A stretch of DNA of 64,000 bases from assembly GCF_044324875.1 (NCBI RefSeq), contig NZ_CP172185.1; one strand, 5' to 3'. Under the pieces are notes generated by a model, which ran no database searches, was not told the origin of the DNA, and saw only the letters and a list, made by a program, of their open reading frames with translations. Numbering within the stretch: position 1 is the first letter of the stretch; the number at the start of each line of letters is the position of its first letter. This document shows positions 14,568 to 52,649 of the stretch, piece by piece. The position numbers and the translations under genes are program-made. This DNA comes from Escherichia coli. GTDB taxonomy: Bacteria; Pseudomonadota; Gammaproteobacteria; Enterobacterales; Enterobacteriaceae.

Positions 14568-16639
<2,072 letters not shown>

Positions 16640-33617: not shown

Positions 33618-35608
33618 ATGTTGCAACATTATTCAGCGTCATGGAAAAAAGGACTGACTGCACTCTGCTTACTGGCTGTTGCCGGGCTTAGCGGCTGCGA
33701 TCAAAAAGAGAATGCGGCGGCAAAAGTGGAATACGACGAACTTTCGAACAGCCAACCGCTGCGTGTCGATGCTAATAACCATACGGTAACCATGCTGGTG
33801 CAAATTAATGGTCGTTTCCTCACCGACGACACTCGTCACGGTATTGTGAACCGCCCCGGGTTTCCTGGAGAGTGTTTTATCTGTGAACTCAGGCTGCCAG
33901 ATCATCGTTTCCGATGGAAGCATAATAAGCTTTTTCTGCTTCTGCCGGTGGGATATGGCCCAGCCTTTCCAGCAATCGTCGATTGTTATACCAGTCCACC
34001 CACGTGAGTGTGGCCAGCTCCACTTCTGTCCGGTTTTTCCAGCTCTTACGGTGTATTACCTCCGCTTTGTAAAGGCCATTGATGCTCTCCGCCATCGCGT
34101 TGTCATACGAGTCACCAGTACTTCCTGTTGATGCCAGTAATCCGGCTTCCTTAAGCCGCTGTGTGTAGGCCAGCGATACATACTGAGAACCTTTATCACT
34201 GTGATGGACTGTGCCGGACGGTCGACGGGCCCATAACGCCTGCTCCAGAGCATCCAGCACGAATGTCGTTTCCATAGACGATGAGACCCGCCACCCCACG
34301 ATGTATCCGGCAAACACATCAATGATGAACGCCACATAGACGACCCCCTGCCATGTGCTGACGTAAGTAAAATCAGCCACCCACAACTGGTCAGGACGTT
34401 CTGCCACAAACTGACGGTTTACGCGGTCGCCTGCGGCAACGGCTTTCCGGCTGACGGTAGTGCGGACCTTTTTACCCCGGAGAACACCGGCAAGTCCCAT
34501 AACCGCCATGAGGCGCGCCACTGTACATCTGGCTACCCTGATTCCTTCCCGTAACAACTGACGCCAGACTTTACGCACACCGTATACCTGATGATTCCCA
34601 TCGTATACGCGCAGTATCTCTTTCTTCAGCCAGTCATCGCGCTGCGCACGGGCACTGCGTTTATCCGGATGATGTCGCTGTTGCTGACAGTGGTAATACG
34701 TTGACGGGGCAATATGTAGTTCACTGCATACCGGTCCGACCCCGTACAGCTTACGCAGCTTATCCAGCAGTGGCATCACTTTTTCCAGAGGCGGTCGAAC
34801 TCCGCCTTCGCAAAATAAGCGGAAGCCTGGCGAAGGATATCGTTACTGCGGCGCAGTTCACGATTTTCACGTTCCAGCTCTTTCAGACGCTGACGTTCAG
34901 CGGTGGTGAGCCCGCCATCACCGCCTCCGGTATCCCGCTCATGCTGGCGTACCCAGACACGCAGAGTCTCCGGTGTACAGCCAATCTTTGGGGCAATGGA
35001 ACAAATTGCCGCCCACTGTGAGTCATATTCGCCCTGACTTTCCAGAACCATACGAATCGCCCTCTGACGGACTTCGGGGGAAAAACGAGTATTTTTAGTC
35101 ATTCTGTTTACCTCTTTCTCAGGGAGTTTAGTCTCCAGGATTCCCGGGGCGGTTCATTGTGTTTAAAGATGGCTCCAACGGACATAAATCGCTGTTTATG
35201 GGTTATGCGACCCCGAAAGCATTTTATGAAGCCCTGAAAGAGGCAGGTGGTACACCGGGCGAAAACATGACGATGGATAATAAAGAAACGACTCATGTCA
35301 CAGGCAGCAAACTGGATATTTCGGTCAACTGGCAAGGGGCGGCAAAAGCGTATTCCTTCGATGAAGTGATTGTTGACAGTAATGGCAAGAAACTGGACAT
35401 GCGCTTTGGCGGTAATTTAACGGCAGCAGAAGAGAAGAAAACGGGCTGCCTGGTGTGTCTGGATAGCTGCCCGGTCGGCATCGTCAGCAATGCAACATAC
35501 ACTTATGGTGCGGTTGAAAAACGAGGTGAAGTTAAATTCAAAGGCAATGCCTCGGTTCTCCCGGCGGATAACACGCTGGCAACGGTTACCTTTAAAATCA
35601 CCGAATAA
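33618..35608 (+). pseudogene. ydjY: ydjY interrupted by IS629
   Basis: 5' part 33618..33846 (MLQHYSASWKKGLTALCLLAVAGLSGC…TRHGI) and 3' part 35157..35608 (VFKDGSNGHK…TFKITE) are in frame once the 1310-bp IS and one copy of the TTG duplication are removed. Confidence 0.8.
33847..35156 (-). mobile_element. IS629-like insertion sequence (IS3 family), copy 2, 1310 bp, inverted relative to copy 1
   Basis: Same termini; orfA 34776..35102 identical to copy 1; orfB 33889..34779 differs by a few residues (e.g. HPDKR vs HPYKR); 3-bp TSD TTG on both flanks. Confidence 0.85.
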
Positions 35609-35622
35609 AGCCAGGATAAAGA

Positions 35623-36330
35623 ATGATGAAGATGCAATCGAGAAAAATCTGGTACTACCGTATAACCCTCATCATCCTGTTGTTCGCTATGCTGCTGGCA
35701 TGGGCGCTGCTTCCCGGCGTCCATGAGTTTATTAATCGCAGCGTTGCGGCGTTTGCCGCCGTGGACCAACAGGGTATAGAACGCTTTATTCAGTCTTACG
35801 GCGCACTGGCGGCAGTTGTCTCGTTCTTGTTGATGATTTTGCAGGCCATTGCTGCACCGCTACCTGCGTTTCTGATCACCTTTGCAAATGCGTCGCTGTT
35901 TGGCGCGTTCTGGGGCGGCTTGCTGTCGTGGACCAGTTCGATGGCCGGCGCGGCGCTGTGCTTTTTTATCGCCAGAGTGATGGGCCGCGAAGTGGTGGAA
36001 AAGTTAACGGGTAAAACGGTACTCAATAGTATGGACGGCTTTTTTACCCGCTATGGTAAACACACCATTCTGGTATGCCGATTATTGCCTTTTGTGCCTT
36101 TTGATCCCGTAAGCTATGCTGCCGGTTTGACTTCAATACGTTTTCGCTCGTTTTTTATCGCCACCGGGCTTGGTCAGTTACCAGCGACTATTGTTTATTC
36201 CTGGGCGGGCAGCATGTTAACAGGCGGTACTTTCTGGTTTGTCACCGGACTGTTTATTCTGTTTGCCCTGACCGTGGTGATTTTTATGGCGAAGAAAATA
36301 TGGCTTGAGCGCCAGAAGAGGAATGCCTGA
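35623..36330 (+). CDS. ydjZ: TVP38/TMEM64 (DedA-like) family inner membrane protein YdjZ
   Basis: 235-aa membrane ORF; synteny. Confidence 0.8.
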   Translation: MMKMQSRKIWYYRITLIILLFAMLLAWALLPGVHEFINRSVAAFAAVDQQGIERFIQSYGALAAVVSFLLMILQAIAAPLPAFLITFANASLFGAFWGGLLSWTSSMAGAALCFFIARVMGREVVEKLTGKTVLNSMDGFFTRYGKHTILVCRLLPFVPFDPVSYAAGLTSIRFRSFFIATGLGQLPATIVYSWAGSMLTGGTFWFVTGLFILFALTVVIFMAKKIWLERQKRNA

Positions 36331-36878
36331 TGGGTTTACCGCCGCTTAGCAAAATTCCTTTCATTTTACGTCCGCAGGCGTGGCTGCATCGTCGCCATTA
36401 CGGCGAGGTGCTAAGCCCGATTCGCTGGTGGGGGCGGATCCCGTTTATCTTTTATCTGGTGTCGATGTTTGTCGGCTGGCTGGAGCGCAAACGCTCACCG
36501 CTGGATCCAGTAGTGCGATCGCTTGTCAGCGCGCGCATTGCGCAAATGTGTCTGTGTGAGTTTTGCGTGGATATCACCAGTATGAAAGTCGCCGAGCGCA
36601 CTGGCAGCACCGATAAACTGCTGGCAGTGGCTGACTGGCGGCAAAGCCCGCTCTTTAGCGATGAAGAACGGCTGGCGCTGGAGTACGCCGAAGCCGCAAG
36701 CGTAACGCCGCCAACGGTCGATGATGCCCTGCGTACCCGACTGGCTGCGCATTTTGACGCCCAGGCGCTCACCGAACTGACGGCATTGATCGGACTGCAA
36801 AACCTGTCAGCCCGTTTTAATTCTGCCATGGACATTCCCGCTCAGGGGCTGTGCCGTATTCCTGAAAAACGTTCTTAA
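36330..36878 (+). CDS. ynjA: Carboxymuconolactone decarboxylase-family protein YnjA
   Basis: 182-aa ORF; synteny. Confidence 0.8.
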   Translation: MGLPPLSKIPFILRPQAWLHRRHYGEVLSPIRWWGRIPFIFYLVSMFVGWLERKRSPLDPVVRSLVSARIAQMCLCEFCVDITSMKVAERTGSTDKLLAVADWRQSPLFSDEERLALEYAEAASVTPPTVDDALRTRLAAHFDAQALTELTALIGLQNLSARFNSAMDIPAQGLCRIPEKRS

Positions 36879-37065: not shown

Positions 37066-38253
37066 ATGGCACTTACAGCCAGACAAGTCGAAACAGCCAA
37101 ACCTAAAGACAAAGATTATAAACTCTCTGATGAACGTGGTTTATATCTGCTGGTAAAAACCACGGGAGCACGCTACTGGCGCTTTAAGTACAGGATAGCA
37201 GGAAAGGAGAAAAAACTGTCCTTCGGTGTCTATCCTGACGTCTCCCTTGCAGAAGCCAGAACCAAACGCGACGATGCAAGGAAAATTATCTCCGAGGGCG
37301 GTGATCCCGGTGAAAAGAAACGAAGGGAAAAACTCTCACAGAAAATCTCTGTCACCAACACCTTCCATGCTCTCGCAATCGAATGGCATCATCATAAATC
37401 TTTATCATGGTCTGACAGTTACGCCAGAAGCGTACTGGAAGCTCTGGATAAAGACGTTTTCCCGTATCTGAGCAACCGGAGCGTTACTGATATCCTTCCA
37501 CTGGAAATGCTGGAAATACTACGTCGAATTGAAAAACGAGGCTCTCTGGAAAAACTACGCAAGGTCCGGCAATACTGCAATCAGATTTTCCGTTATGCCA
37601 TAGCCACAGGACGAGCCACTGTCAATCCAGCCTCAGAACTGAGCAGCACGCTGGCGGCACCAAAAACCGCACATTTTCCCCATCTGAGAGCGGATGAACT
37701 TCCTGTTTTTCTCCGGAAGCTCGCTGACTATCACGGCAGTCCTGTCACTCGTATGGCTACAAACCTGCTGATTCTGACCGGGCTCAGAACGATTGAATTG
37801 CGACTGGCCGAATGGTCAGAAATTGATTCTAGCAACGCACTCTGGCATATCCCTAGAGAGAGAATGAAAATGCGCCGGCCTCATATTGTTCCTCTGTCAC
37901 GCCAGGTCATTTCTGTTCTGCAGGAATTACATGGTTTTACCGGACAGTATCGCCTTATGCTACCCGGACGTTGCGATGTAAACAAACCTATGAGTGAAGG
38001 CTGCATCAATATGGTGCTCAAACGTATCGGTTACGATGGCAGGGCAACCGGTCATGGTTTTCGTCACACCATGAGTACCATTCTGCACGAACAGGGCTTT
38101 AATTCTGCCTGGATTGAAATGCAGTTAGCTCATGTGGATAAAAACTCCATCAGGGGTACCTATAATCATGCACATTATCTCGATGGTCGCCGTAAAATGA
38201 TGCAGTGGTACGCTGATTACATTGATTCTCTTATGGGAAAAACGCACAAATGA
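37066..38253 (+). CDS. int: P4-type tyrosine integrase (phage/island integrase)
   Basis: MALTARQVETAKPKDKDYKLSDERGLYLLVKTTGARYWRFKYR… typical P4-like N-terminus; catalytic region HGFRHT…RGTYNHAHY; RBS CAGGAG upstream. Confidence 0.85.
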   Translation: MALTARQVETAKPKDKDYKLSDERGLYLLVKTTGARYWRFKYRIAGKEKKLSFGVYPDVSLAEARTKRDDARKIISEGGDPGEKKRREKLSQKISVTNTFHALAIEWHHHKSLSWSDSYARSVLEALDKDVFPYLSNRSVTDILPLEMLEILRRIEKRGSLEKLRKVRQYCNQIFRYAIATGRATVNPASELSSTLAAPKTAHFPHLRADELPVFLRKLADYHGSPVTRMATNLLILTGLRTIELRLAEWSEIDSSNALWHIPRERMKMRRPHIVPLSRQVISVLQELHGFTGQYRLMLPGRCDVNKPMSEGCINMVLKRIGYDGRATGHGFRHTMSTILHEQGFNSAWIEMQLAHVDKNSIRGTYNHAHYLDGRRKMMQWYADYIDSLMGKTHK

Positions 38254-38300: not shown

Positions 38301-38639
38301 TTATTTTTTGATTTTTGCCTTCAGGCGTGTCCACAGGAAAATGCAAACTGCGGTATATACCCGTGTGATAAACAACAGTTTAAGGCTGAAATACTCTCCT
38401 GCCTCGCTGGCATTCGTTTCAAACATAGCGAAAAGAACACTCTGCGAGAACTCATGACTATAAATAAAATAATAACAGAGTGCTGTCAGTGACGTAGTCC
38501 AGAGAATAATACCGACAACCGCTGCAATAATTTTTATCCGTTCTGGAAAAAGAAACACGGGTATCCGCCACAGGGAGCTGAATAACAGTGAATCTCGTAT
38601 TCCATTTATTCCACCGTATCCGGTGCTGAAGATAATCAC
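38301..38639 (-). CDS. Hypothetical membrane protein (possibly a fragment), downstream of the glycosyltransferase
   Basis: 112-aa hydrophobic ORF; function not recognisable. Confidence 0.3.
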   Translation of the reverse strand: MIIFSTGYGGINGIRDSLLFSSLWRIPVFLFPERIKIIAAVVGIILWTTSLTALCYYFIYSHEFSQSVLFAMFETNASEAGEYFSLKLLFITRVYTAVCIFLWTRLKAKIKK

Positions 38640-38803
38640 CTGCAGCAGGGTGGAAAAGATAAAGTATCGCCCCCGTGCGCTCCGGCTGAAAGCAGGTCTG
38701 CTGTTTCCGGCATTTAAATGTATTGACCATCTCCCGGTAAAATGTAATAAATCCCCCGTTACCGGAAAACCGATGAACAGAATTCGGACAGAAAATGAGT
38801 TCC

Positions 38804-39746
38804 TCAGTTACCTGTTGCGTTTCCCCCGGTCTGATGAGCCAGAGACACAATGGTCTGTACCGTTCTGTTGATATTAAACCGGTATTCGATATCTTCTCTG
38901 GCGCTGGCAACCATCATCCTGAAGCGTTCCGGGCGGGACAAAAAATCCCGAAGCGCACTGGTCCATGCAGTCATATCTCCCACAGGTAAAAGTGTTCCTG
39001 TCACATTTTTCTGAATGGCATCCGGGATCCCGCCAGTCTCACTGGCAATAACGGGAACACCGGAGGCTGACGCTTCAGCCAGGACCATGCCAAATGCCTC
39101 ATTTTTCAGAAGGCATGATAGCACACTGGCAACCCGGTATATCGGTAACGCCGGGAAAACAGCACCAGCCATGAAAACATCACCACTCATTCCCAGTGAT
39201 TCAATCTGCAGGCGAAGGCGTTCTTCGTATTCCTCACGACCAGCGCCCACCACGAGCCATCGAAATACTTTCCCTTCCATCTTCAGTTGGTGCAACACCC
39301 GGAGCATAAATTCATGCCCTTTCTCGGGACGCAACATACCCACCTGGACAATCAGCGGGATATTGCCCGCTGATTCTGTCCATCCCTGAATATGCGGAGG
39401 TAACTGTTGCCTGACTTCTCTGTGTAATACAGAAACGATGCCAGCATATCAGACGGCTCAGGCCTGCAATGTTACTGTCATGACCACTGTGGCAGATTAC
39501 CAGATCAGGTCTGAATTACCGGATTACCTGCCGCAGTCTGATGATGGAAGGAAGGTGAAGACTGTTCCTGAAAGGAATAAAAGTAACATCATGTCCGATT
39601 GTTCTGGCTTCATGAGCTATTTTACTTTTTTCCCTGCAGGCGAGTAAAACAGAATGCCCCTGTTTCTGGAGCGCTGTCATCTGTGCCAGAGCCTGTAACT
39701 CCTGGCCACCAATATCTGGTGAAGACTCAGTGAATAAAATCTTCAT
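38804..39746 (-). pseudogene. Glycosyltransferase family 4 (GT-B), frameshifted
   Basis: N-terminal GT4-like fragment 39516..39746 (MKILFTESSPDIGGQELQALAQ…) and C-terminal GT1/GT4 domain 38804..39343 (…EAFGMVLAEASASGVPVIASETGGIPD…) in different frames. Confidence 0.6.
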
Positions 39747-40401
39747 TATTAATTCTCTGGTAATCTTGGCCCCTTATGAAGAGCCAGTAATGAAGAGAAA
39801 AATGGCGTGATATAATAAAAAGGCACCGTTTCAGCCAACCGCAATATTCCCGTTCTTTTGTACTAATACGTCCTATAAGTAATGAACCTTTTACAGGGCA
39901 GTTCATTCTTCTTTCCGTTGTATATAAATAAGATAAACCAAGTTCTCTGGTGAGATTAATATAATCTCTGCTATAATATCCTGCAGGCCAGCATAGATGG
40001 GGACTACAGTATCCCAGTTTTTCCTTCAGACATTGTTTGCCTGTCATAATAGCTTCTTCCATGAGTCGGCACTGCTCAGTACGTGGTACAGACAGTCTGT
40101 CCCAGCGTTTATGTGAATGGGTATGTAAATGGAATTCAACAAGACCGGAATCACGCATTTCCCGGACTTCAGACCAGCGAAGCATCACTTCATCGGAACG
40201 GTTATCTGCAATCAACTGCTCACAGTCGCGATGCGAATATTCCCGTTTCTGTCTGTAACGCACCTTCCCGTCACCAATCAACCCTGTAATGAGAAAAATA
40301 TGCGTATGAAGATTGTATTCCTTCAGTACCGGCCATGCCCGGAACCAGTTATCAAGATATCCGTCATCGAATGTAATCATGAAGCTCTTTCTTGGAAGCA
40401 T
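39727..40401 (-). CDS. Polysaccharide deacetylase (NodB-homology, CE4)
   Basis: 224-aa ORF with ITFDDGY motif and conserved His-rich region (HLHTHSH). Confidence 0.6.
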   Translation of the reverse strand: MLPRKSFMITFDDGYLDNWFRAWPVLKEYNLHTHIFLITGLIGDGKVRYRQKREYSHRDCEQLIADNRSDEVMLRWSEVREMRDSGLVEFHLHTHSHKRWDRLSVPRTEQCRLMEEAIMTGKQCLKEKLGYCSPHLCWPAGYYSRDYINLTRELGLSYLYTTERRMNCPVKGSLLIGRISTKEREYCGWLKRCLFIISRHFSLHYWLFIRGQDYQRINNEDFIH

Positions 40402-42267
40402 TCCCCCCTGATAAAAATATTAAAGTTCAGCGGATGTTACTGTCCGCCAGTTATTTTTTGCGAGCCACTCTATCTGTTCACAAAATATTTCAGGTGAAAG
40501 TGTCACAAGCCCCGGACAGCGACTGACATGATGGTACATCAGTACGGGAAGATGTCTTGCATTCAACATAAAGCATTATCACCAGTTAGTTATACAGTAA
40601 ATATACCCCGAGTAAAAACAGGGCGGTTTAGGATATGTCTGGCTCCGGGTATTCTACTATGTAATCAGGGAATAATGGACAATGAGAATACAACAGACAC
40701 TTTTAATATTTCCGACTGTTTATCAAAATAATTTTATCCTTTGTGAATATATTGTTTTTATCAGATGATTTACTTATTTTCCAGGAAAATAAAATCCTTC
40801 GATTTCAGGACACTCAGAGGAATATACCTGCTTCCGTCAAAAATCATAAAAACCGTGTCCCGATTAGTTTTAGCAGCAGGATCAAATGCAGTAATATAAT
40901 GATCTTATACCAGTAAGCCACTGGGAAATGCCCTCAAAATGTCGTGCACTGATTTTTCGGTTGAGAGCCTCATAATACCTAATATTACTGGCCGTAATAA
41001 TCCGGAGGCACAGCATAGCTTTCTTGTACAGAGGCATCATGATGAACAGGATTAATACCGTCACAGATGCACAAGTTTTACCCGTGATAAAGAATCCCGT
41101 TTTGTCCGCACTTGCCTGCGCCAGCGTTGAAAACGTGCCGGTTATTGTAGTTAAGTTATTGCCGCTAACTTTTTCACAACCCACCTATCCGGATATTTCC
41201 TTATTCTTCATATATTACATCTCATAAATTTAAATGTGAGTTTCTCATGGGTAAAATAAATTATACGAATCGCATCAATAGGAAAGACAGACGGTGCTGC
41301 CGATATAAAACGGGAAGTGACGGGATAAGCAGTTATGTGAATATTGTTTCAAAAAATGATATTTTGTGTTGTTAAAGTATAACTTTGCAATAAGCTATCC
41401 ATGATGGGATTCTGTAAATGAACAAAACACTCTCTTCAATTCTGCTCATCTTCGGTATCTGTGCATCATCACTGGCTGCTGATAAAAAAGAACCGTCAGT
41501 TTTCCACGATGTGAAGGGCAGGAAGCATCGGCTGTTTCAGCCAGCGTCAAACGGAACTATCTCCAGAAACAGGTGCTTCACAGGAAAGATGACTAGGTGC
41601 TCCTCAGTCAGCAGCGTCCTGTTGTCTGGGTGAATCTTCGTGAGCTGGTAAGTAAAGGTGATAATTTAGTCACAGCGCATCTCACCGCCAGGGGGAATAA
41701 AGCCGATATTCAGTATCGGGTGCGCATTGACTGTAAGAACGAAAACGCTATCTGGCAGCGCCAGGGATGAACGCTTGAAGATAACCACAGAGTATGAACA
41801 AACGGACTCTACATGTTCATTATGACTAAAAAAACGCTGCACGTTCTCTGTTTTATTTTACGTTGCTGTCATAACGTGTTTACCTCAATTTTCGGGAACG
41901 TGTTCTTAGCGCTTAGACTACCCCTGAATCTTCTGCTGTTGAAGGGCCGTAACAGGGTAAGTGATAACAGATGTCTGGACATATAGGAGCAAATTCACCG
42001 ATTTACTTAATCATGATGTTATTTTGTAAAATAAGCTGAGGGGAGTTTCACATAATGTTAGTTTTTGTGTAAACGCAAGAAGGAAAATCAATAAAATTAA
42101 TATATAGTTATATGTTGTAGGTGTGAGTATGACTGTTTGGCCGTGGAGTGCATTCCTAAATTAGGATTGGATCATTTAAGGTTTAACACATTATTAAATA
42201 CGGCAAATTACAGTAAAATACTTTGCCGTATTTAGAAATAAAATTAAATTTTTCTATAGAATATTAT

Positions 42268-42657
42268 TTATCTGAATTTTCGGTGGCCTTCCAGTTTTAT
42301 ATTATTCATTTTATCCAGAGCATCACGTAGTGACTCTATATTCCCCGACTCAACCTTCTCTTTTGCAAGATTGATTTCATTTTGTAGTTTCTTCAACTCA
42401 TTCTTATAACTTTCCACTGCGACTTTATCGTTGCTGTTTATTTTTTCAGGAAGAGTATTCATGGAAGCATTTACAGCTTTGTCCATCATATCAAGAGCAT
42501 TTAATAGAGATTTTTTATCACCAGAGGATTGTAGAGTGCTCATATTTCTTGCAAGGCTCTGCATATTTTTATCCAGTCCGGAAGCCAAAGATATATGACT
42601 GGTAGATAAACACATTACAAGTATAGAACTCACAATAAAGAATTTTTGTTTCTTCAT
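42268..42657 (-). CDS. Cytochrome b562-family protein (secreted four-helix bundle)
   Basis: Signal peptide; heme-ligand Met in DKNMQSL (cf. b562 EDNMETL) and C-terminal His in LEGHRKFR (cf. NAYHQKYR); AT-rich context. Confidence 0.55.
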   Translation of the reverse strand: MKKQKFFIVSSILVMCLSTSHISLASGLDKNMQSLARNMSTLQSSGDKKSLLNALDMMDKAVNASMNTLPEKINSNDKVAVESYKNELKKLQNEINLAKEKVESGNIESLRDALDKMNNIKLEGHRKFR

Positions 42658-42954
42658 TAATTTACTCCTATTCGAAAGTGATTATCGTCATGGCAATTTA
42701 ACTTTATTATTCTATCTTTTATGGATGTACATCTCCTATATGGGTATACACAAGAAAATGTGATGCATTTCTAAAAACTATTCTACTTTATTCGGTATTG
42801 CTGAATGATTCACCATTAAGAAAATAGATATAACAGTTCTTTATTTCTTTTATTTAACATGGTTGTATTAAATATTCAACAGGTTTTCTAATACCAGTTG
42901 GGCTTTGTTGAAAAAATCTGATTTAGGGTAAGAGCCCCGTAGCTAGTTGTGCTT

Positions 42955-43500
42955 TCAGGCAATACGCACGCTCTCAGGCATACCTACTTTCGTGATTTTA
43001 TTCAGCGCTAGCGCCATGACCATACCCTCTGCAACCTGACCATCGTAGTCACGCAGCGTCAGTGAACCTCCGAACAACTGTTTTACCCGGTACATCGCTG
43101 TTTCCGCTATCGAACGACGGTTATAATCTGTTGTCCATTTACACCGGGCATTACTTCCGGTCAGCCGCTGATTAGCCACTGCACGGTTACGGTCTTCGTA
43201 TTCACCGGGCTAGTAACCCGCACCTTTTCGGGAAGGGGTAAGCGCGCTGATTTTCTTACGCCTCAGTTCATCGTGACAGAGTCGGGGGTCGTAAGCCCCG
43301 TCTACCGCTGCAGCCATGATTTTTCTGTGAGTCTGTTGGAGAAGCCCCGGGAAGGCTTCTGAGTCCGTGACGTTGTTCAGCGACAGGTCTGCACAGACAA
43401 TTTCATGTGTGTTGCCATCAACAGACAGATGCGACGCCCCTCTTTGCCGTGCTTTTTGGCTTTCCTTTCGCCTTCCCCAAAGACTTTTAGCCCGTTGGAA
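42955..43500 (-). pseudogene. IS4/IS5-superfamily transposase remnant
   Basis: C-terminal fragment YNRRSIAETAMYRVKQLFGGSLTLRDYDGQVAE carries the Y-x2-R-x3-E-x6-K signature; upstream frames broken. Confidence 0.5.
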
Positions 43501-43716
43501 TCAATCACGAGGTGTATGATTTCACCCCGGGTGGGGATTTATGTATAAGAAACAGCGTATTCGTGAGGGGTGAGCCATGAATAAAATCCCTTTTGAAGTA
43601 TTAATCCACTCTGAAAATGCATTAATCTGCGCAAAGGAAATGGACGCGTTATTAATTAAGTTAATTGATATTCCGGAAAGTGGCGATAAAACATATTCGA
43701 TGACGGACAGGCGACA

Positions 43717-43989
43717 ATGTGGTTATCTGTGCTGGCGTTTGGCAGACAGGCCGAAGCACTGGCCAGACACCAGAAAGGCGAACTGGTAAGCGTGGCAGGT
43801 AACATGCAGGTCAGCCAGTGGACAGGGCAGAACGGGAAAACGCGGCAGGGACGGCAGGTTATCGCAGACAGCGTAATCAGTACTCAAACGGTGCGGCCAG
43901 GAGGAAGCAGACGCGAAACCACAGGTACACAGGGTAATCAGCCACCAACGGGAGGCGACGCCACTTACGGAGATGATATACCCTTATGA
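43717..43989 (+). pseudogene. ssb: Single-stranded DNA-binding protein, N-terminally truncated
   Basis: …LAFGRQAEALARHQKGELVSVAGNMQVSQWTGQNGKTRQGRQVIADSV… resembles the SSB OB-fold C-terminal half, with Gly/Gln-rich tail and acidic DDIPL terminus; N-terminal about 55 residues absent. Confidence 0.6.
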
Positions 43990-44006
43990 ATTAAGCGGGG
44001 CGCAAC

Positions 44007-44327
44007 ATGAACAACAGCACACTGAAGAGCCGGACAATAAGCGACGCGACAGCGGAAGAACTCGAGAGCAGGGGACTGTGGCGACGTGCTGCCAGAAGGT
44101 GGCAGGATGTGATGATTACTCTTGAGAAAGACAGTCACAGACAGCTTGCAGTAATGAGAGCAAGGGAATGTATCAGGAAGGCAAAACGCCCGATACCTGA
44201 AAGCCGTATTGATATTCATACAGTCAGAAAGGCCGCAGACAGGACAATACAAAAAATGGGGCTACCGTCGCTTACTGATGAAATATGGCGCGATTACCCT
44301 GATAGCGTTAACGATGACGGTTATTAA
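44007..44327 (+). CDS. PerC-family transcriptional regulator (Pch-like)
   Basis: 106-aa ORF with PerC signature AEELESRGLWRRAARRW. Confidence 0.6.
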   Translation: MNNSTLKSRTISDATAEELESRGLWRRAARRWQDVMITLEKDSHRQLAVMRARECIRKAKRPIPESRIDIHTVRKAADRTIQKMGLPSLTDEIWRDYPDSVNDDGY

Positions 44328-44610
44328 CTGGCGGGGGAAACACGATACCAGCGGGCGTGACTCGGGAGAATATATACCGCTGGTGGAACATTACCAGCCC
44401 TGATGGCTGGTGGCGTGCGTTACGACCTGAAAGACCATCCATGCGGGAAGGTGACACAGGAGCACCTGGCGAACGCGGGGAAGCGACTGGATGAGATTAA
44501 GAAAAAACAGCAGGAGCGCAGAAAAAGTAACCGTCTCATTAAAACGTCTTTCGCCTCCCTTTCCTGTTTCCTATGCTAATGTCCATTTTCGCAGTAAAAG
44601 GACATTTACG

Positions 44611-47552: not shown

Positions 47553-47822
47553 AAAAACACAGGCTAACCGCGCCTGCGTTTTTAATGACGGATGAAACAG
47601 AATCAGGTGCCGATTATGCCGCCGTCGGCTTTTACGATAACGACAGTTGAGGAGCGCGGACGACCAGCCTTATCGCCGTCAGGCCAGCTTGATACTGCCG
47701 TCGGATGCTGCGGATCGCTAAGCTGCGTATTCCGCTCTATTCGATCACGGATTGGCATCGAAGTCCGATCAGCGATTCGCATCCATTCGATCAACCGGGA
47801 ACTTAACTTTTTCTACCGCTTT

Positions 47823-48578
47823 TTAACGCGTTTTTTCGCTGCTTTCCACTACCGGGGGATTTTTCCTCAGTGACTCTCCCTGAAGGACCACTCGGTGTGA
47901 GTTATGTACCAGTCTGTCCAGGATGGCATCTGCTGTTGTTGGGTTCTCCATCAGACCATGCCATTTATCTACCGGGAACTGGCTTACCACTATCGTGCTG
48001 CTTTGTCCGTAACGATCCTCTATGAGCTCCAGAAGGTCATTACACTGGGCGTTACTTAACTGTTCCAGCCCCAGATCGTCCAGGATTAGAACCTGTATTT
48101 TTTGCAACTGTTTCAGATATTTCAGCCAGCTGCCATCAACACGTCCCTGAGCCAGTTGTTCCAGTAATCGCCCGGTTCTACAGTACCGGACGCTGTGTTT
48201 CTGTCGACATGCCTGTTCGCCCAGCGCATTGGCTATCCAGCTCTTGCCACATCCTGTCGGACCGGTTATCAGCAGGTTTTTCCTGTGGGTTATGTAGTGG
48301 CCGTTCAGCAGTTCTCTCATCTGTTCAGCCCGCAGACCTCTTGAGGCCGGATAGCGCAGCCCTTCCGGTGTTGCCTGGTATTTCAGGCCGGCATTTTTTC
48401 TCAACCGTGCCACACGGCTGTTTTCCCTGCTCAGAAGCTCGTCATCAACCAGCAGCGTCAGCCTTTCCTCGAACGACAGTTCGTCGTAGGTCTGAGGCGT
48501 TTCCCGCTGCCGTATCAGGCTCCCGGCCATCGCCGGGAGTTTCAGTTGGGTCAGTTTGTTTAACAGGTTATCACTCAT
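47823..48578 (-). CDS. istB: IS21-family helper ATPase IstB
   Basis: MSDNLLNKLTQLKLPAMAGSL… with Walker A GPTGCGKS and Walker B VLILDDLG. Confidence 0.8.
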   Translation of the reverse strand: MSDNLLNKLTQLKLPAMAGSLIRQRETPQTYDELSFEERLTLLVDDELLSRENSRVARLRKNAGLKYQATPEGLRYPASRGLRAEQMRELLNGHYITHRKNLLITGPTGCGKSWIANALGEQACRQKHSVRYCRTGRLLEQLAQGRVDGSWLKYLKQLQKIQVLILDDLGLEQLSNAQCNDLLELIEDRYGQSSTIVVSQFPVDKWHGLMENPTTADAILDRLVHNSHRVVLQGESLRKNPPVVESSEKTR

Positions 48579-48594
48579 ACTGTTGTTCCTTCTG

Positions 48595-50160
48595 TCAGTG
48601 GTAGTAGCCCGGACCACGCAGGTTTTCATGCTCTGAAGCATATGCCGGATGTTGTTCGCCCTGGCGGGATAATGGAAGCTCCAGGTTCTCCCGATGGTGA
48701 CGCAGCAGATTGTCGATAAAGCGTCTGTCAGGGGCGTTATAGTGCAGGGCAACGTAACAGGCCTTTTCCAGCCGTTCCGGGCCGTATTTTTTCTGAAGTG
48801 CCAGCAGCCCCAGAACTGCACGATAAGCCAGTTCCGGATGGGGTTTTGCCTTCAGCATGGATTCAACCACCCGGCCTGTGGACGGGCCCGTACGTTTTCC
48901 CTGCTCGATCAGGCGTTCCGGTGTCCATGTCCCGTGCTGCCGGTGGCGCTCTGGCATGTGAAGCGGATTGGTTGTGTGTTTATATTCATGTGTGCTGCGC
49001 GGATGTTGCGCCACACACTGCCCCTTGTGCCAGAGCTGTACCACCGACTGCCCCGCCTTCAGTGACAGACGCTGACCGACCAGTTCGTGTGGAACGGAGT
49101 ACCAGTGACGGGCATATTCAACGTGGTAGTCAGGGCCAACCTTCACAGCTTTGTATTCCGTGTATTCATAAGGTGCCAGAGGCAGCGGAGAGAGTGCTGG
49201 CGCATCCAGTATGCGGAAGCGTTCTGCACGGGTTTGATTGCCGTACCCCTTCATTGGCCGGTTATTCATGTCTGTCAGTAACTCCCTAAGGCGCGCATTC
49301 AGCGCCCTGAGCGTGTGGAAGGTTTCATTACGGATGCGGGCAAGAAGCCATCGTTCAACGATGAGGACGCCGTTTTCTGCTTTTGGTTTATCTTTAGGTT
49401 TGCGTGGTCGGGCCGGGATGATAACCGTGCCATAGTGCTCAGCCAGTGCCTGATAACTGTCGTTGATGACAGGCTCATATCGATCGGCCTTTTTCACTGC
49501 GCTTCTGAGGTTATCGGGGATGAGCAGCTTCGGTACGCCGCCCAGGAAGGTCAGGCAACGGCTGTGGGCATTTAACCATGACATCATGTCCTGACCTTCG
49601 CACGCTTCAACGTAGGTATAGTTGGACGCCCCCATTACGGCCACGAAGATTGCCACGCGGCGTATCTCACCGGTGTCCGGATTAATAACAGGAACCGTAG
49701 GACCACAGAAGTCGATAAAAAGCTTTTCGCCGGCACGATGCTCCTGGCGCATGGAGAGACGTCGCGTTTTTTTCCACTCCCGGTAGCAACGGCAGAAGTG
49801 CGAGTATCCCATCGCTTTGTTACCCGCCTGTGCCTTGTATTCCATCCACAACAGTTGCCGCGTCACACCTGGTTTTCTCATTTCCGTATCGAAGTACAAC
49901 ATGTCAGGCATTACAAGCTCTGATGCAAAGGTGTCTTTGGGCGGAAAAATGAGTTTCTCCAGCGTGTCATGGGATATATCAGCAGGTAATGGCCATGACA
50001 GAGAAGAGGCTTTGAAGCGGGCAAGAACCTCAAAAACGGTTGAGGCGCTGATGTGTAACGTCAGTCCGATACAACGGTTAGTCAGCTTCTTGTCGAACTT
50101 GAGCTGAAGGATCTTAAAACAGGTTTCCATAGTGCTCCTGGATTTTCTCTTTCTGGACAT
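48595..50160 (-). CDS. istA: IS21-family transposase IstA
   Basis: About 510-520 aa with HTH N-terminus and DDE integrase core; start codon uncertain (ORF extends to 50241). Confidence 0.75.
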   Translation of the reverse strand: MSRKRKSRSTMETCFKILQLKFDKKLTNRCIGLTLHISASTVFEVLARFKASSLSWPLPADISHDTLEKLIFPPKDTFASELVMPDMLYFDTEMRKPGVTRQLLWMEYKAQAGNKAMGYSHFCRCYREWKKTRRLSMRQEHRAGEKLFIDFCGPTVPVINPDTGEIRRVAIFVAVMGASNYTYVEACEGQDMMSWLNAHSRCLTFLGGVPKLLIPDNLRSAVKKADRYEPVINDSYQALAEHYGTVIIPARPRKPKDKPKAENGVLIVERWLLARIRNETFHTLRALNARLRELLTDMNNRPMKGYGNQTRAERFRILDAPALSPLPLAPYEYTEYKAVKVGPDYHVEYARHWYSVPHELVGQRLSLKAGQSVVQLWHKGQCVAQHPRSTHEYKHTTNPLHMPERHRQHGTWTPERLIEQGKRTGPSTGRVVESMLKAKPHPELAYRAVLGLLALQKKYGPERLEKACYVALHYNAPDRRFIDNLLRHHRENLELPLSRQGEQHPAYASEHENLRGPGYYH

Positions 50161-50241
50161 TGACGTCTCCACTGGTTTAAACACGGCAATGGAGACTGTG
50201 GTGAAAAGAGTTAATTCCCGGAGTGACTGGCAGGATGCCAA

Positions 50242-52227
50242 TCAATGATCGGAAGCATGCCAAATCGTGATCGATTGTGATGCCAAACTGTGATCGGAGA
50301 TGGATGCCAAATCATGATCGATTCGAATGCCAAACTGCGATCGATTCAGATGCCATTTTGCACTAAGCCCTTCGCTTGGCTCGCCAGGGTGCTGGATGTT
50401 AATAAACAGCGTCCGGTTATCCGGAGTGAACGCGATGCCGGTGATTTCGCAGCCGCGCGGGCCGGTCAGGAAGCGGCGGAACTCATTGGTACCGGGAATC
50501 GTCGCCACCATCTGGTTGTTGCCCATGCCTTTGTAATCTTTAATATTTATGGTTGATGACGACACGTCGGTCTGGATCCATAGCACGCCGCGGTGATCGA
50601 AGCTCAGGCCATCGGCGCTGCCGAATTCCGCACCCTTCATGCTGCCTTTGGTTTCCGGTTTGTCTGTATCGGTGCGACCGCCCATCACAAGAATATCCCA
50701 GGCAAACTGCAGCGCGGTCGGGTCACCGTTATGCTCCAGCCAGTGAATGATGTGGCCGTAAACGTTTTTGGCGCGCGGGTTGGCCGCATCCACTGGCGCT
50801 TTTCCTTCCTTACCGCGATCGCTGTTGTTGGTGAGCGTGCAGTAAACGCTGCCGGCGTGATATGGATCGACCGCAATCCACTCCGGGCGGTCCATTTTAG
50901 TGGCCCCCACGGCGTCTGCCGCCAGACGGGTTTTAATCAACAGGTCGCCCTGGTTTTCAAACCCTTTACTGGCGTCGAGCCCATTTTGTCCGAACACCAG
51001 CGGTAGCCACTCGCCTTTGCCGTCGTCGTTAAATTTCGCCACGTACAGAGTGCCTTTTTCCAGCAGGTGCATGTTGGCTTTGCGATCCTGCGGGTTGAAT
51101 TTTCCTTCCGAGACAAATTTATATATGTATTCGAATTTCTGGTCATCGCCCATATAGACCACAACGCGGTTATCCGGGGCAATTGTCACCGCTGCGCCTT
51201 CGTGTTTGATGCGACCAAGCGCGGTGTGCTTGCGCGGCACTGAATGCGGATCGTATGGATCGATTTCCACCACCCAGCCGAAGCGGTTCGGCTCGTTCGG
51301 CGTGGCGTCGACGCTGAACCTTTTATCCACTTCGTTCCAGCGGTAAGAGTCGTCGCTCCCGCTGATACCGTAACGTTTTTCCAGCGGGTTCATCTCTGCT
51401 TTTTTTACGAAAATATCGGACCAGTTCTCTTCACACGTCAGATAGGTGCCCCACGGCGTAAATCCGTTGGCACAGTTCTGCATGGTGCCGAGAATGATTT
51501 CGCCTTTCGGATCGTCAACTGTTTGCATCAGTGGGTTATGCAGCGCCGGACCGGTGATTTTCATCGGCGTGTTAACGGTGATGCGGCGTGCGAACGATGA
51601 CGGGCGCACCACTTCCCAGCCCAGGGGCACTTTTTTTACTTCAATGACCGACACGCCCATCGCGTTCTGGCCTTTAAGAGCTTTATCGGCGCTCCAGTTG
51701 GCATCGCCATCTTTAAACAGTAGACCGTTATCGATGTATTCATGGTTTATGGCAAGCAGGCCGTGATCGGAGCTGTTCCCGCCCTGCGGCAGGCTAAACC
51801 ACGCCATGCCGTCGTGGTGCATCCCGGCCTGCGCCGCCTGTTCTTCCGTGGTGTTGCTACCGTCGGTTTTAAAAACCGGCAGATTTCCGGCAATCCCGGT
51901 GGCGTCGCCCCATTTGTAGAAGGGCTTCGCGATGTATCCTTCCGGCACGATAACGGTATCTTCCGTGGAAACCGGCAGGCTGGTGAAACCGAGCGTCGTC
52001 GCTTTGCCGAGGTTACCGCTTGCTTTGGAGACCACTTTCGCCAGCGCGTTTTCCTGTTTCAGCAGAAATGGGAACGCTGCCGCGGCACCGGCGACCGTGC
52101 CTGCCTGTAACAGACGGCGGCGTGACAAATAGACTTCCGCCACCTGCGAAAACGCGCGGTTATCGCTCGGGTTACTGATTTCTTCACTATGCTCACGTTT
52201 GAATAAAGTTTTTAACGGTCTGCCCAT
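50242..52227 (-). CDS. Tat-signal secreted PhoX-family (DUF839) phosphatase-like protein; C-terminus replaced by IS21-derived codons
   Basis: 661-aa ORF; twin-arginine motif SRRRLLQAGTVAGAAAA; beta-propeller-like repeats; last about 40 codons read through the IS21 terminal repeats. Confidence 0.45.
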   Translation of the reverse strand: MGRPLKTLFKREHSEEISNPSDNRAFSQVAEVYLSRRRLLQAGTVAGAAAAFPFLLKQENALAKVVSKASGNLGKATTLGFTSLPVSTEDTVIVPEGYIAKPFYKWGDATGIAGNLPVFKTDGSNTTEEQAAQAGMHHDGMAWFSLPQGGNSSDHGLLAINHEYIDNGLLFKDGDANWSADKALKGQNAMGVSVIEVKKVPLGWEVVRPSSFARRITVNTPMKITGPALHNPLMQTVDDPKGEIILGTMQNCANGFTPWGTYLTCEENWSDIFVKKAEMNPLEKRYGISGSDDSYRWNEVDKRFSVDATPNEPNRFGWVVEIDPYDPHSVPRKHTALGRIKHEGAAVTIAPDNRVVVYMGDDQKFEYIYKFVSEGKFNPQDRKANMHLLEKGTLYVAKFNDDGKGEWLPLVFGQNGLDASKGFENQGDLLIKTRLAADAVGATKMDRPEWIAVDPYHAGSVYCTLTNNSDRGKEGKAPVDAANPRAKNVYGHIIHWLEHNGDPTALQFAWDILVMGGRTDTDKPETKGSMKGAEFGSADGLSFDHRGVLWIQTDVSSSTINIKDYKGMGNNQMVATIPGTNEFRRFLTGPRGCEITGIAFTPDNRTLFINIQHPGEPSEGLSAKWHLNRSQFGIRIDHDLASISDHSLASQSITIWHASDH

Positions 52228-52649
52228 TGCGGTTTCCTTTCAAAAAATCGATTTCAAGGGGAATCATTTTTATGCACGTGAGTCTACGGAAAGATTGTTA
52301 CGGAAATATAACAATTGTCATAAAAAACCGGCGATAAAATCATCTATGGTCGGGACGCGGTTTCAGGTATGATGTGAGGCTAGAATTCTGAACGCTCTCT
52401 TTTGTTGAGCATATATGGACGTCCCAGATGAGGCAAGTACTGGTTCGATGCGGTTTGCGACCATATATCCGGCGTCGTTAGTAGGTTCAATGACCTGCGC
52501 CATGATGTTATCCGGGCCCTGTTTCCTAATCACTACACCGGTATTTGATTACCCAGGTCAACTTCAGACTGTTACAGGGGCGGTAGCCGTTATCTCATCA
52601 GTGAATGTAAACTCAGTTAAAAATATTTTCTATAACTTACTGTTTTTCT

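Follow-up and report, generated by a model that had tools for sequence, protein, structure and literature searches.

The open reading frame at 42268..42657 on the minus strand of the 64,000-nucleotide stretch of Escherichia coli DNA analysed here (hereafter the window) is, with high confidence, a horizontally acquired gene encoding a haem protein of the cytochrome b562 family. Our best overall explanation, to which we assign a probability of roughly 60%, is that this acquired gene specifies an exported haem b electron carrier whose ancestors were linked to a peroxidase gene, and that it now persists as a solitary cassette. The coding sequence, taken from the ORF list, is intact (129 codons plus a stop, ATG start); a first-pass annotation had placed it exactly and had quoted two motifs, both of which are present: LDKNMQSL, carrying Met32, and EGHRKFR, carrying His125. 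RefSeq already names the product cytochrome b562 (WP_001354052.1). The family identification is therefore not new, and the gene alone is of modest interest, an already-annotated accessory b562 homologue that changes little. The clade to which it belongs is uncharacterised, and the link of its relatives to katG-type genes supplies a hypothesis for b562 function.

The protein matches the Pfam profile PF07361 (Cytochrom_B562) with E=6.7e-16 and 59.2 bits (gathering cut-off 30 bits) over profile positions 2-102 of 102, whereas it reaches only 70.9 bits with the NCBIfam CybC equivalog (NF011632 / PRK15058), for which the cut-off is 130. It is therefore a member of the b562 family and not an orthologue of core CybC, with which it shares 23% identity. 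Sequence matches in the PDB were weak (best E=5e-4) and were all to soluble cytochrome b562. An alignment of 27 family sequences including E. coli CybC (A1) contains only seven invariant columns, among them M32, L55, M58, P70, L91, and H125. Retention of both haem-ligand positions, claimed in the first-pass annotation, is borne out by this alignment, in which M32 falls on CybC Met7 and H125 on CybC His102. The codons of these two predicted axial ligands lie at 42562..42564 (Met32, mature Met7) and 42283..42285 (His125, mature His100), both on the minus strand, and their conservation suggests that the protein binds haem b non-covalently between them.

The product of codons 1-25 (42583..42657, minus strand), MKKQKFFIVSSILVMCLSTSHISLA, is predicted to be a Sec signal peptide; its n-region is basic, a hydrophobic core follows, and the segment ends in the small-x-small motif S-L-A. 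By eye and by alignment with the signal peptide of CybC, cleavage would occur at SLA|SG; the earlier claim of a signal peptide thus stands at the level of inspection and alignment. The predicted mature protein comprises residues 26-129 (104 aa) and begins with SGLDKNM, so that its Met is the seventh mature residue, the position found in b562. A lipoprotein reading was dropped on inspection, as LVMC|L, with Met at -1 relative to the Cys, is not a lipobox.

An AlphaFold2 model computed on the A1 alignment has four helices (residues 27-44, 48-65, 78-103, and 107-128) and a mean pLDDT of 83, with values of about 90-97 in the mature part and below 50 at residues 1-24, in line with a signal peptide. 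The predicted structure is an antiparallel four-helix bundle of the ~105-residue class. Among the best 50 Foldseek matches in the PDB, all are cytochrome b562 or its engineered or fusion (BRIL) derivatives, so that the structure prediction agrees with the earlier b562 assignment. Foldseek alignments to 256B, 4ER9 (Salmonella), and 2BC5 gave rmsd values of 1.3-1.5 A over 104 columns with target TM scores of 0.90-0.91 (1.4 A and 0.91 for 256B).

Compared with CybC (256B, PF07361), the island protein is of the same length class and shares the predicted signal peptide, the predicted four-helix bundle, the Met and His positions, and the mature Met7. It differs in a helix2-helix3 loop that is two residues shorter, in the replacement of CybC Phe65 by Leu and Tyr101 by Gly, and in its methionine content, which is twice that of CybC (6 Met in 104 mature residues versus 3 in 106). 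The methionines raise the possibility of a b562 fold with no haem function, e.g. a Met-rich periplasmic oxidant sink or a Cu(I)/Ag(I) binder. M66 and M117, where CybC has Gln and Leu, are invariant in a ten-sequence alignment of the solo clade and its katG-linked relatives (A3), and some relatives lie near oxidative-stress genes (katP and, at one locus, L005, a sodC less than 2 kb away). We nevertheless regard a non-haem role as highly improbable: every intact member keeps both haem ligands as well as the core positions that are invariant in the family, the Met enrichment is modest and inside the range of other b562 proteins (2-7), and the protein contains no Met-x-Met or His-rich metal motif. 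The isoelectric point was also considered as a clue to a partner different from that of CybC (9.2 for the window protein versus 5.4) and was discarded as uninformative, since the family as a whole covers values of 4.8 to 10 and the solo clade 5.9 to 9.2.

The first-pass annotation had called the gene a paralog. This holds insofar as it is an extra homologue in the genome, but at 23% identity to CybC it is an acquired xenolog and not a duplicate of cybC. Core cybC, at its pmbA-cybC-nrdG locus, was found in 5425 of 5426 complete E. coli genomes, so the island gene is an additional acquired homologue; the 1.1 kb around it occurs in 29 of the 5426, always on the chromosome, and the ORF is an intact CDS in every E. 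coli genome among the matches listed. The proposal of horizontal acquisition gains further support from the 34% GC content, from the integrase-led island in which this accessory gene sits, and from alleles that are found on plasmids or between insertion sequences. As had been noted, the GC content is low: 34.1% for the ORF (GC3 32%) versus 48.6% for the whole window, and the 100-bp bins between ~42000 and ~42900 are at 25-36%.

The gene lies about 4 kb inside a chromosomal island adjacent to ynjA. RefSeq annotation of near-identical genomes, mapped on the window, places ynjA at 36330-36878, directly before a tyrosine recombinase/integrase (37066..38253, plus strand) that forms the left edge of the island; no tRNA gene was found at the island. 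Upstream of the b562-like gene, the AT-rich segment is bounded by an IS5-family transposase fragment (42955..43532, minus strand, from the mapped annotation of L029; ORF fragment 42955..43179).

A search with a word-indexed protein database returned 54 proteins, every one annotated as b562. They form several allele groups: the window type, P0012 (89% identity), P0014 (79%, Klebsiella), a common group at ~71%, and a second 71% group (P0046). An exhaustive search of 1.84 billion representatives gave only 34 matches: a cluster at 71%, another at 49% (P0055), fragments, and ordinary b562 proteins at 23-34%. With tblastn, a homologue was detected on 586 plasmid records, 571 of them from Escherichia; 87 are at 60-80% identity (ColV/APEC plasmids, e.g. 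p1ColV5155) and 499 below 60% (pO157-like). A copy was detectable by DNA similarity in 152 complete E. coli genomes, at 175 places of which 128 are plasmid-borne, with at most three per genome. P0012 looks recombinant, with a signal peptide and context of the ColV type and a mature part of the window type. A species-wide locus search with the A3 alignment retrieved only five loci, namely three short contigs binned as Lachnospiraceae that carry a pO157-like katP and b562, and two contig fragments of ~500 bp; no donor species was therefore identified.

Several strains carry the island copy together with a ~72% ColV-type plasmid allele, which with cybC makes three b562-family genes. The chromosome/plasmid pairs are NZ_CP080260.1 / NZ_CP080263.1 (strain 135), NZ_CP120557.1 / NZ_CP120558.1 (B771), and NZ_CM148325.1 / NZ_JBVWEU010000002.1 (24A16CRGN010). 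On a Salmonella plasmid (L005), a b562-like allele lies 1.7 kb from sodC.

Comparison of the window by blastn with a ColV plasmid (L002), a second chromosomal locus (L003), and two further loci (L027 and L028) revealed 77-87% identity that is confined to 42197/42200..42704/42748. Outside this interval the contexts differ, and in L002 and L003 they are bounded by insertion sequences. The unit of transfer is therefore a single-gene cassette of ~550 bp (42197..42748, minus strand; 31.3% GC), consisting of ~90 bp upstream, the ORF, and ~70 bp downstream. Its 3' edge is a terminator-like hairpin, AAAUACGGCAAA...UUUGCCGUAUUU (42197..42233, minus strand), located 36-75 nt past the stop codon. The RNA fold of -20.7 kcal/mol (z = -5.3) was matched in stability by none of 200 shuffles; the stem is kept in four alleles, including the ColV, chromosomal, and Klebsiella ones, and homology stops right after it. 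The U-tract is weak and a terminator scan made no call. The ColV/APEC b562 (WP_000595317.1, p1ColV5155) belongs to the same solo clade (71-73% amino acid and about 77-80% nucleotide identity) and has the same ~550-bp cassette including the hairpin; its context is different, since it lies between a LysR/cytosine permease/carbamate kinase cluster and an IS3.

The order PhoX ... b562-like gene on one strand is common to the window (50242-52373 and 42266-42673) and to the P0046 locus (L024/L026, 1675-5392). The PhoX genes are 93% identical at the DNA level and the b562 genes only 77%, and the interval between the two genes is 1.1 kb at the P0046 locus versus ~5 kb of fragments plus one insertion sequence in the window. 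This comparison suggests that the history of the region is mosaic or that the b562 allele has been replaced.

The genomic contexts of the closest relatives outside the solo clade connect the gene with peroxidases. On pO157-type plasmids, a b562 homologue is located 46 bp downstream of katP, the gene for a periplasmic catalase-peroxidase; from its published product name and the pO157 numbering, we take this homologue to be L7018. L7018 is a member of the sister clade, with ~50% identity, equal length, the same ligands, and a similarly AT-rich gene, and it is probably co-transcribed with katP. In contrast to this plasmid-borne gene, the window gene is solitary and has its own upstream region. 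More distantly, a PF00141 peroxidase of ~730 aa is encoded directly upstream of P0055 (49% identity), P0063 (31%), and P0065 (~28%), and all four peroxidases, i.e. KatP and these three, have signal-peptide-like N-termini. A GC-rich hairpin is present in three of the four peroxidase-b562 spacers, including that of L7018, with differing sequences (e.g. GAGGGAGGGCACCTCCCTC), a hint of a conserved structure between the two cistrons.

The two-gene module, in which 28-53 bp separate the gene of a KatG-type peroxidase with a signal-peptide-like N-terminus from a b562-like gene downstream, was observed at L004 4747-7390, L011 2749-5390, L012 2755-5375, and L016 2756-5387. KatP, 97-98.6% identical to that of pO157, is also encoded directly upstream of the homologue in L006, L007, and L008. 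These are contigs of 3.4-3.9 kb labelled as Lachnospiraceae MAGs, and they almost certainly represent enterobacterial plasmid DNA mis-binned into Firmicutes MAGs.

A neighbour-joining tree built from the mature regions gave 100% bootstrap support to the solo clade and also to its grouping with the katP-type clade, i.e. a phylogenetic affinity of the b562-like protein with katG-linked b562 sequences; the node that adds P0063 and P0065 reached 48%. Since the sister lineage and the next relatives lie directly after katG-type genes, an ancestral peroxidase partnership is the most likely one, and we hold this specific ancestry tentatively, at somewhat below an even chance. Other b562 genes are found in unrelated contexts (the F-plasmid leading region, beside dsbC, beside LysR regulators, and pmbA-nrdG for core cybC), so katG linkage is a trait of this part of the family only. 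The module itself is not present in the window, where the upstream neighbour of the b562-like gene is the IS5 fragment, and tblastn with KatP detected no KatP-like sequence or katP remnant anywhere in the window at E<1e-3. With no katG or katP in the window, a peroxidase partner for the island copy is conjecture.

We know of no established physiological role for core cytochrome b562, and KatY of Yersinia is periplasmic. The only published operon evidence for coupling of a b562 to a peroxidase comes from Y. pestis, in which the katY-cybC-cybB operon was verified by RT-PCR (PMC2231364). There, as in the nearest relatives of the window gene, the b562 gene is coupled to that of a catalase-peroxidase; the Yersinia operon differs in being chromosomal and in comprising three genes, one of which encodes a membrane cytochrome b561. 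In E. coli, the L7018 protein has been detected, at a level 6.3-fold higher in the piglet gut than in vitro (PMC3686733). In the literature library that we searched, no paper ties b562 to ColV plasmids or functionally to KatP, and none analyses the katG association functionally.

On these grounds we propose that the gene product would be exported through the Sec pathway to give a soluble periplasmic four-helix-bundle protein of ~11.7 kDa, which would hold one non-covalent haem b by Met32 and His125 and would act as a soluble one-electron carrier. Its ancestral partner may have been a periplasmic KatG-type peroxidase, in a redox (or haem) partnership for peroxide defence; by the model of the Yersinia operon, electrons would pass from the quinol pool to membrane b561, then to b562, and finally to the peroxidase. 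The lineage of the window gene has lost the katG linkage, and the stand-alone cassette moves among insertion sequences in ColV/APEC plasmids and in the ynjA-adjacent island. The role of the island copy may overlap with that of CybC.

The same fold and ligand evidence, together with the fact that in four lineages the gene immediately follows one for a periplasmic KatG, could also be explained by a periplasmic haem buffer or delivery protein, which would bind haem b reversibly and either pass it to exported apo-KatP/KatY or sequester free haem during infection. An economy of iron and haem would fit the behaviour of Y. pestis CybC, which is listed as Fur-regulated and is up 4.7-fold in iron starvation, with KatY down (PMC2835676), as well as the wealth of iron-uptake genes in the island and on ColV plasmids (iha, sit, iuc/iutA). 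The best upstream Fur-box match of the window gene (14/19) overlaps a -10-like hexamer, but it is weak (P ~0.02 with mononucleotide shuffles); at the same position the ColV allele has only 12-13/19 and the Salmonella allele nothing. The gene has no linked haem transporter, and the inclusion of the membrane cytochrome b561 CybB in the Yersinia operon suggests an electron path. Six-coordinate Met/His ligation, moreover, is typical of electron-transfer cytochromes. We consider the haem buffer quite unlikely and favour the electron carrier.

The putative expression signals of the gene are partly conserved. A Shine-Dalgarno sequence, AGGAG (42665..42669, minus strand), read directly from the sequence, lies 8 nt 5' of the ATG; in an alignment of the cassettes (A2), both the ColV and the chromosomal alleles retain AGGA. 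The -10-like hexamer GATAAT (42681..42686, minus strand) lies inside the conserved 90-bp upstream stretch of the same alignment, is TATAAT in the ColV allele, and is not accompanied by a -35 element. A sigma-70 consensus scan identified no site upstream of the ATG on the strand of the gene, with total matches below the expectation from shuffles, and an Rfam scan of 41300-43300 found no leader RNA, the sole match being a sub-threshold snoRNA attributable to chance. The gene may be expressed in this host.

The lack of a consensus promoter would also suit a hitch-hiking relic, a gene that is intact only because it is short and arrived recently, that makes no contribution in this host, and that is probably silent in its AT-rich DNA. 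Its neighbours in the decaying island are pseudogenes and fragments of insertion sequences, the katG gene that once accompanied it is gone, and the copies in E. coli genomes, being 99.7-100% identical, carry little information on selection within the lineage. Degraded alleles also occur in the clade, namely a truncated P0054, P0048 and P0053 with frameshifts in the signal-peptide region, and P0005, from which the His has been lost. Over a longer time scale the picture is different. Comparison of the window allele with the ColV and second chromosomal alleles gave dN/dS values of 0.22-0.27 at a dS of ~0.6, i.e. long-term purifying selection after the loss of katG, so the solo gene has been maintained by selection. 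The Shine-Dalgarno sequence, the upstream 90 bp, and the hairpin are likewise kept across alleles, at least three contexts have acquired the cassette independently, ColV plasmids commonly carry it, and several strains keep both the island and the plasmid copies. A relic is therefore improbable in our estimation, and a functional solo cassette remains our preferred reading.

Few proteins are used as widely as cytochrome b562 as a model and in engineering (BRIL fusions, designed metalloproteins). The repeated association of the relatives of the mobile clade with periplasmic KatG-type peroxidases on virulence plasmids offers a concrete hypothesis for the role of b562, and it suggests why pathogenic E. 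coli sometimes hold two or three b562 genes. A bolder extension, which we consider unlikely, is that the mobile clade (L7018, the ColV copies, and the island copy) is the missing partner of periplasmic catalase-peroxidases, through electrons or haem delivery, and that the stand-alone copies spread by insertion sequences in avian and extra-intestinal pathogenic E. coli are a small, unrecognised oxidative-stress fitness factor; if true, this would also be the first defined physiological role for cytochrome b562.

In the island, nearly all neighbouring genes are pseudogenes according to the mapped RefSeq annotation, and the wreckage includes ABC-transporter fragments and ICE remnants; iha is also present. 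Just inside the island, a decayed envelope-modification run (38319-40569, minus strand) contains a truncated cptA-like phosphoethanolamine transferase gene and frameshifted genes for a family-4 glycosyltransferase and a polysaccharide deacetylase. A gene for a YebF-like secreted protein (41418-41770, plus strand), which converges on the b562-like gene, has been divided by a frameshift into an ORF for the signal peptide and N-terminus (41418..41633) and a second ORF (41597..41770) that RefSeq names 'YebF family protein'. On the other side, a short ssb, a PerC-family regulator gene, and a ProQ/FinO-family gene stand in a row (43693-44600, plus strand); this arrangement resembles the leading region of a plasmid or ICE, in keeping with the derivation of this part of the island from a plasmid.

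Insertion sequences have continued to remodel the region. An IS21-family element (47723-50363; IstA-like protein of 548 aa and IstB-like protein of 332 aa) is absent from the related genomes L001 and L029; with a 24-kb query, the best matches extend over only 89% of its length. The insertion point lies within the PhoX gene (ORF 50242..52227), ~120 nt short of its end, and in this window only, the element replaces the PhoX C-terminus. Two inverted IS3-family-like copies of ~1.3 kb (33847-35156 and 15255-16564) are 88.6% identical to the copy in L001/L002, and the former interrupts ydjY relative to a reference genome, with flanks that overlap by ~5-6 bp. In the reference genome L022 (NZ_CP033635.1, 2583000-2630000), the island runs on for more than 45 kb past the right end of the window as a graveyard of insertion sequences that includes accessory sodC, ibrB-like genes, sitABCD, and iucABCD-iutA, i.e. 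much of the typical cargo of ColV plasmids.
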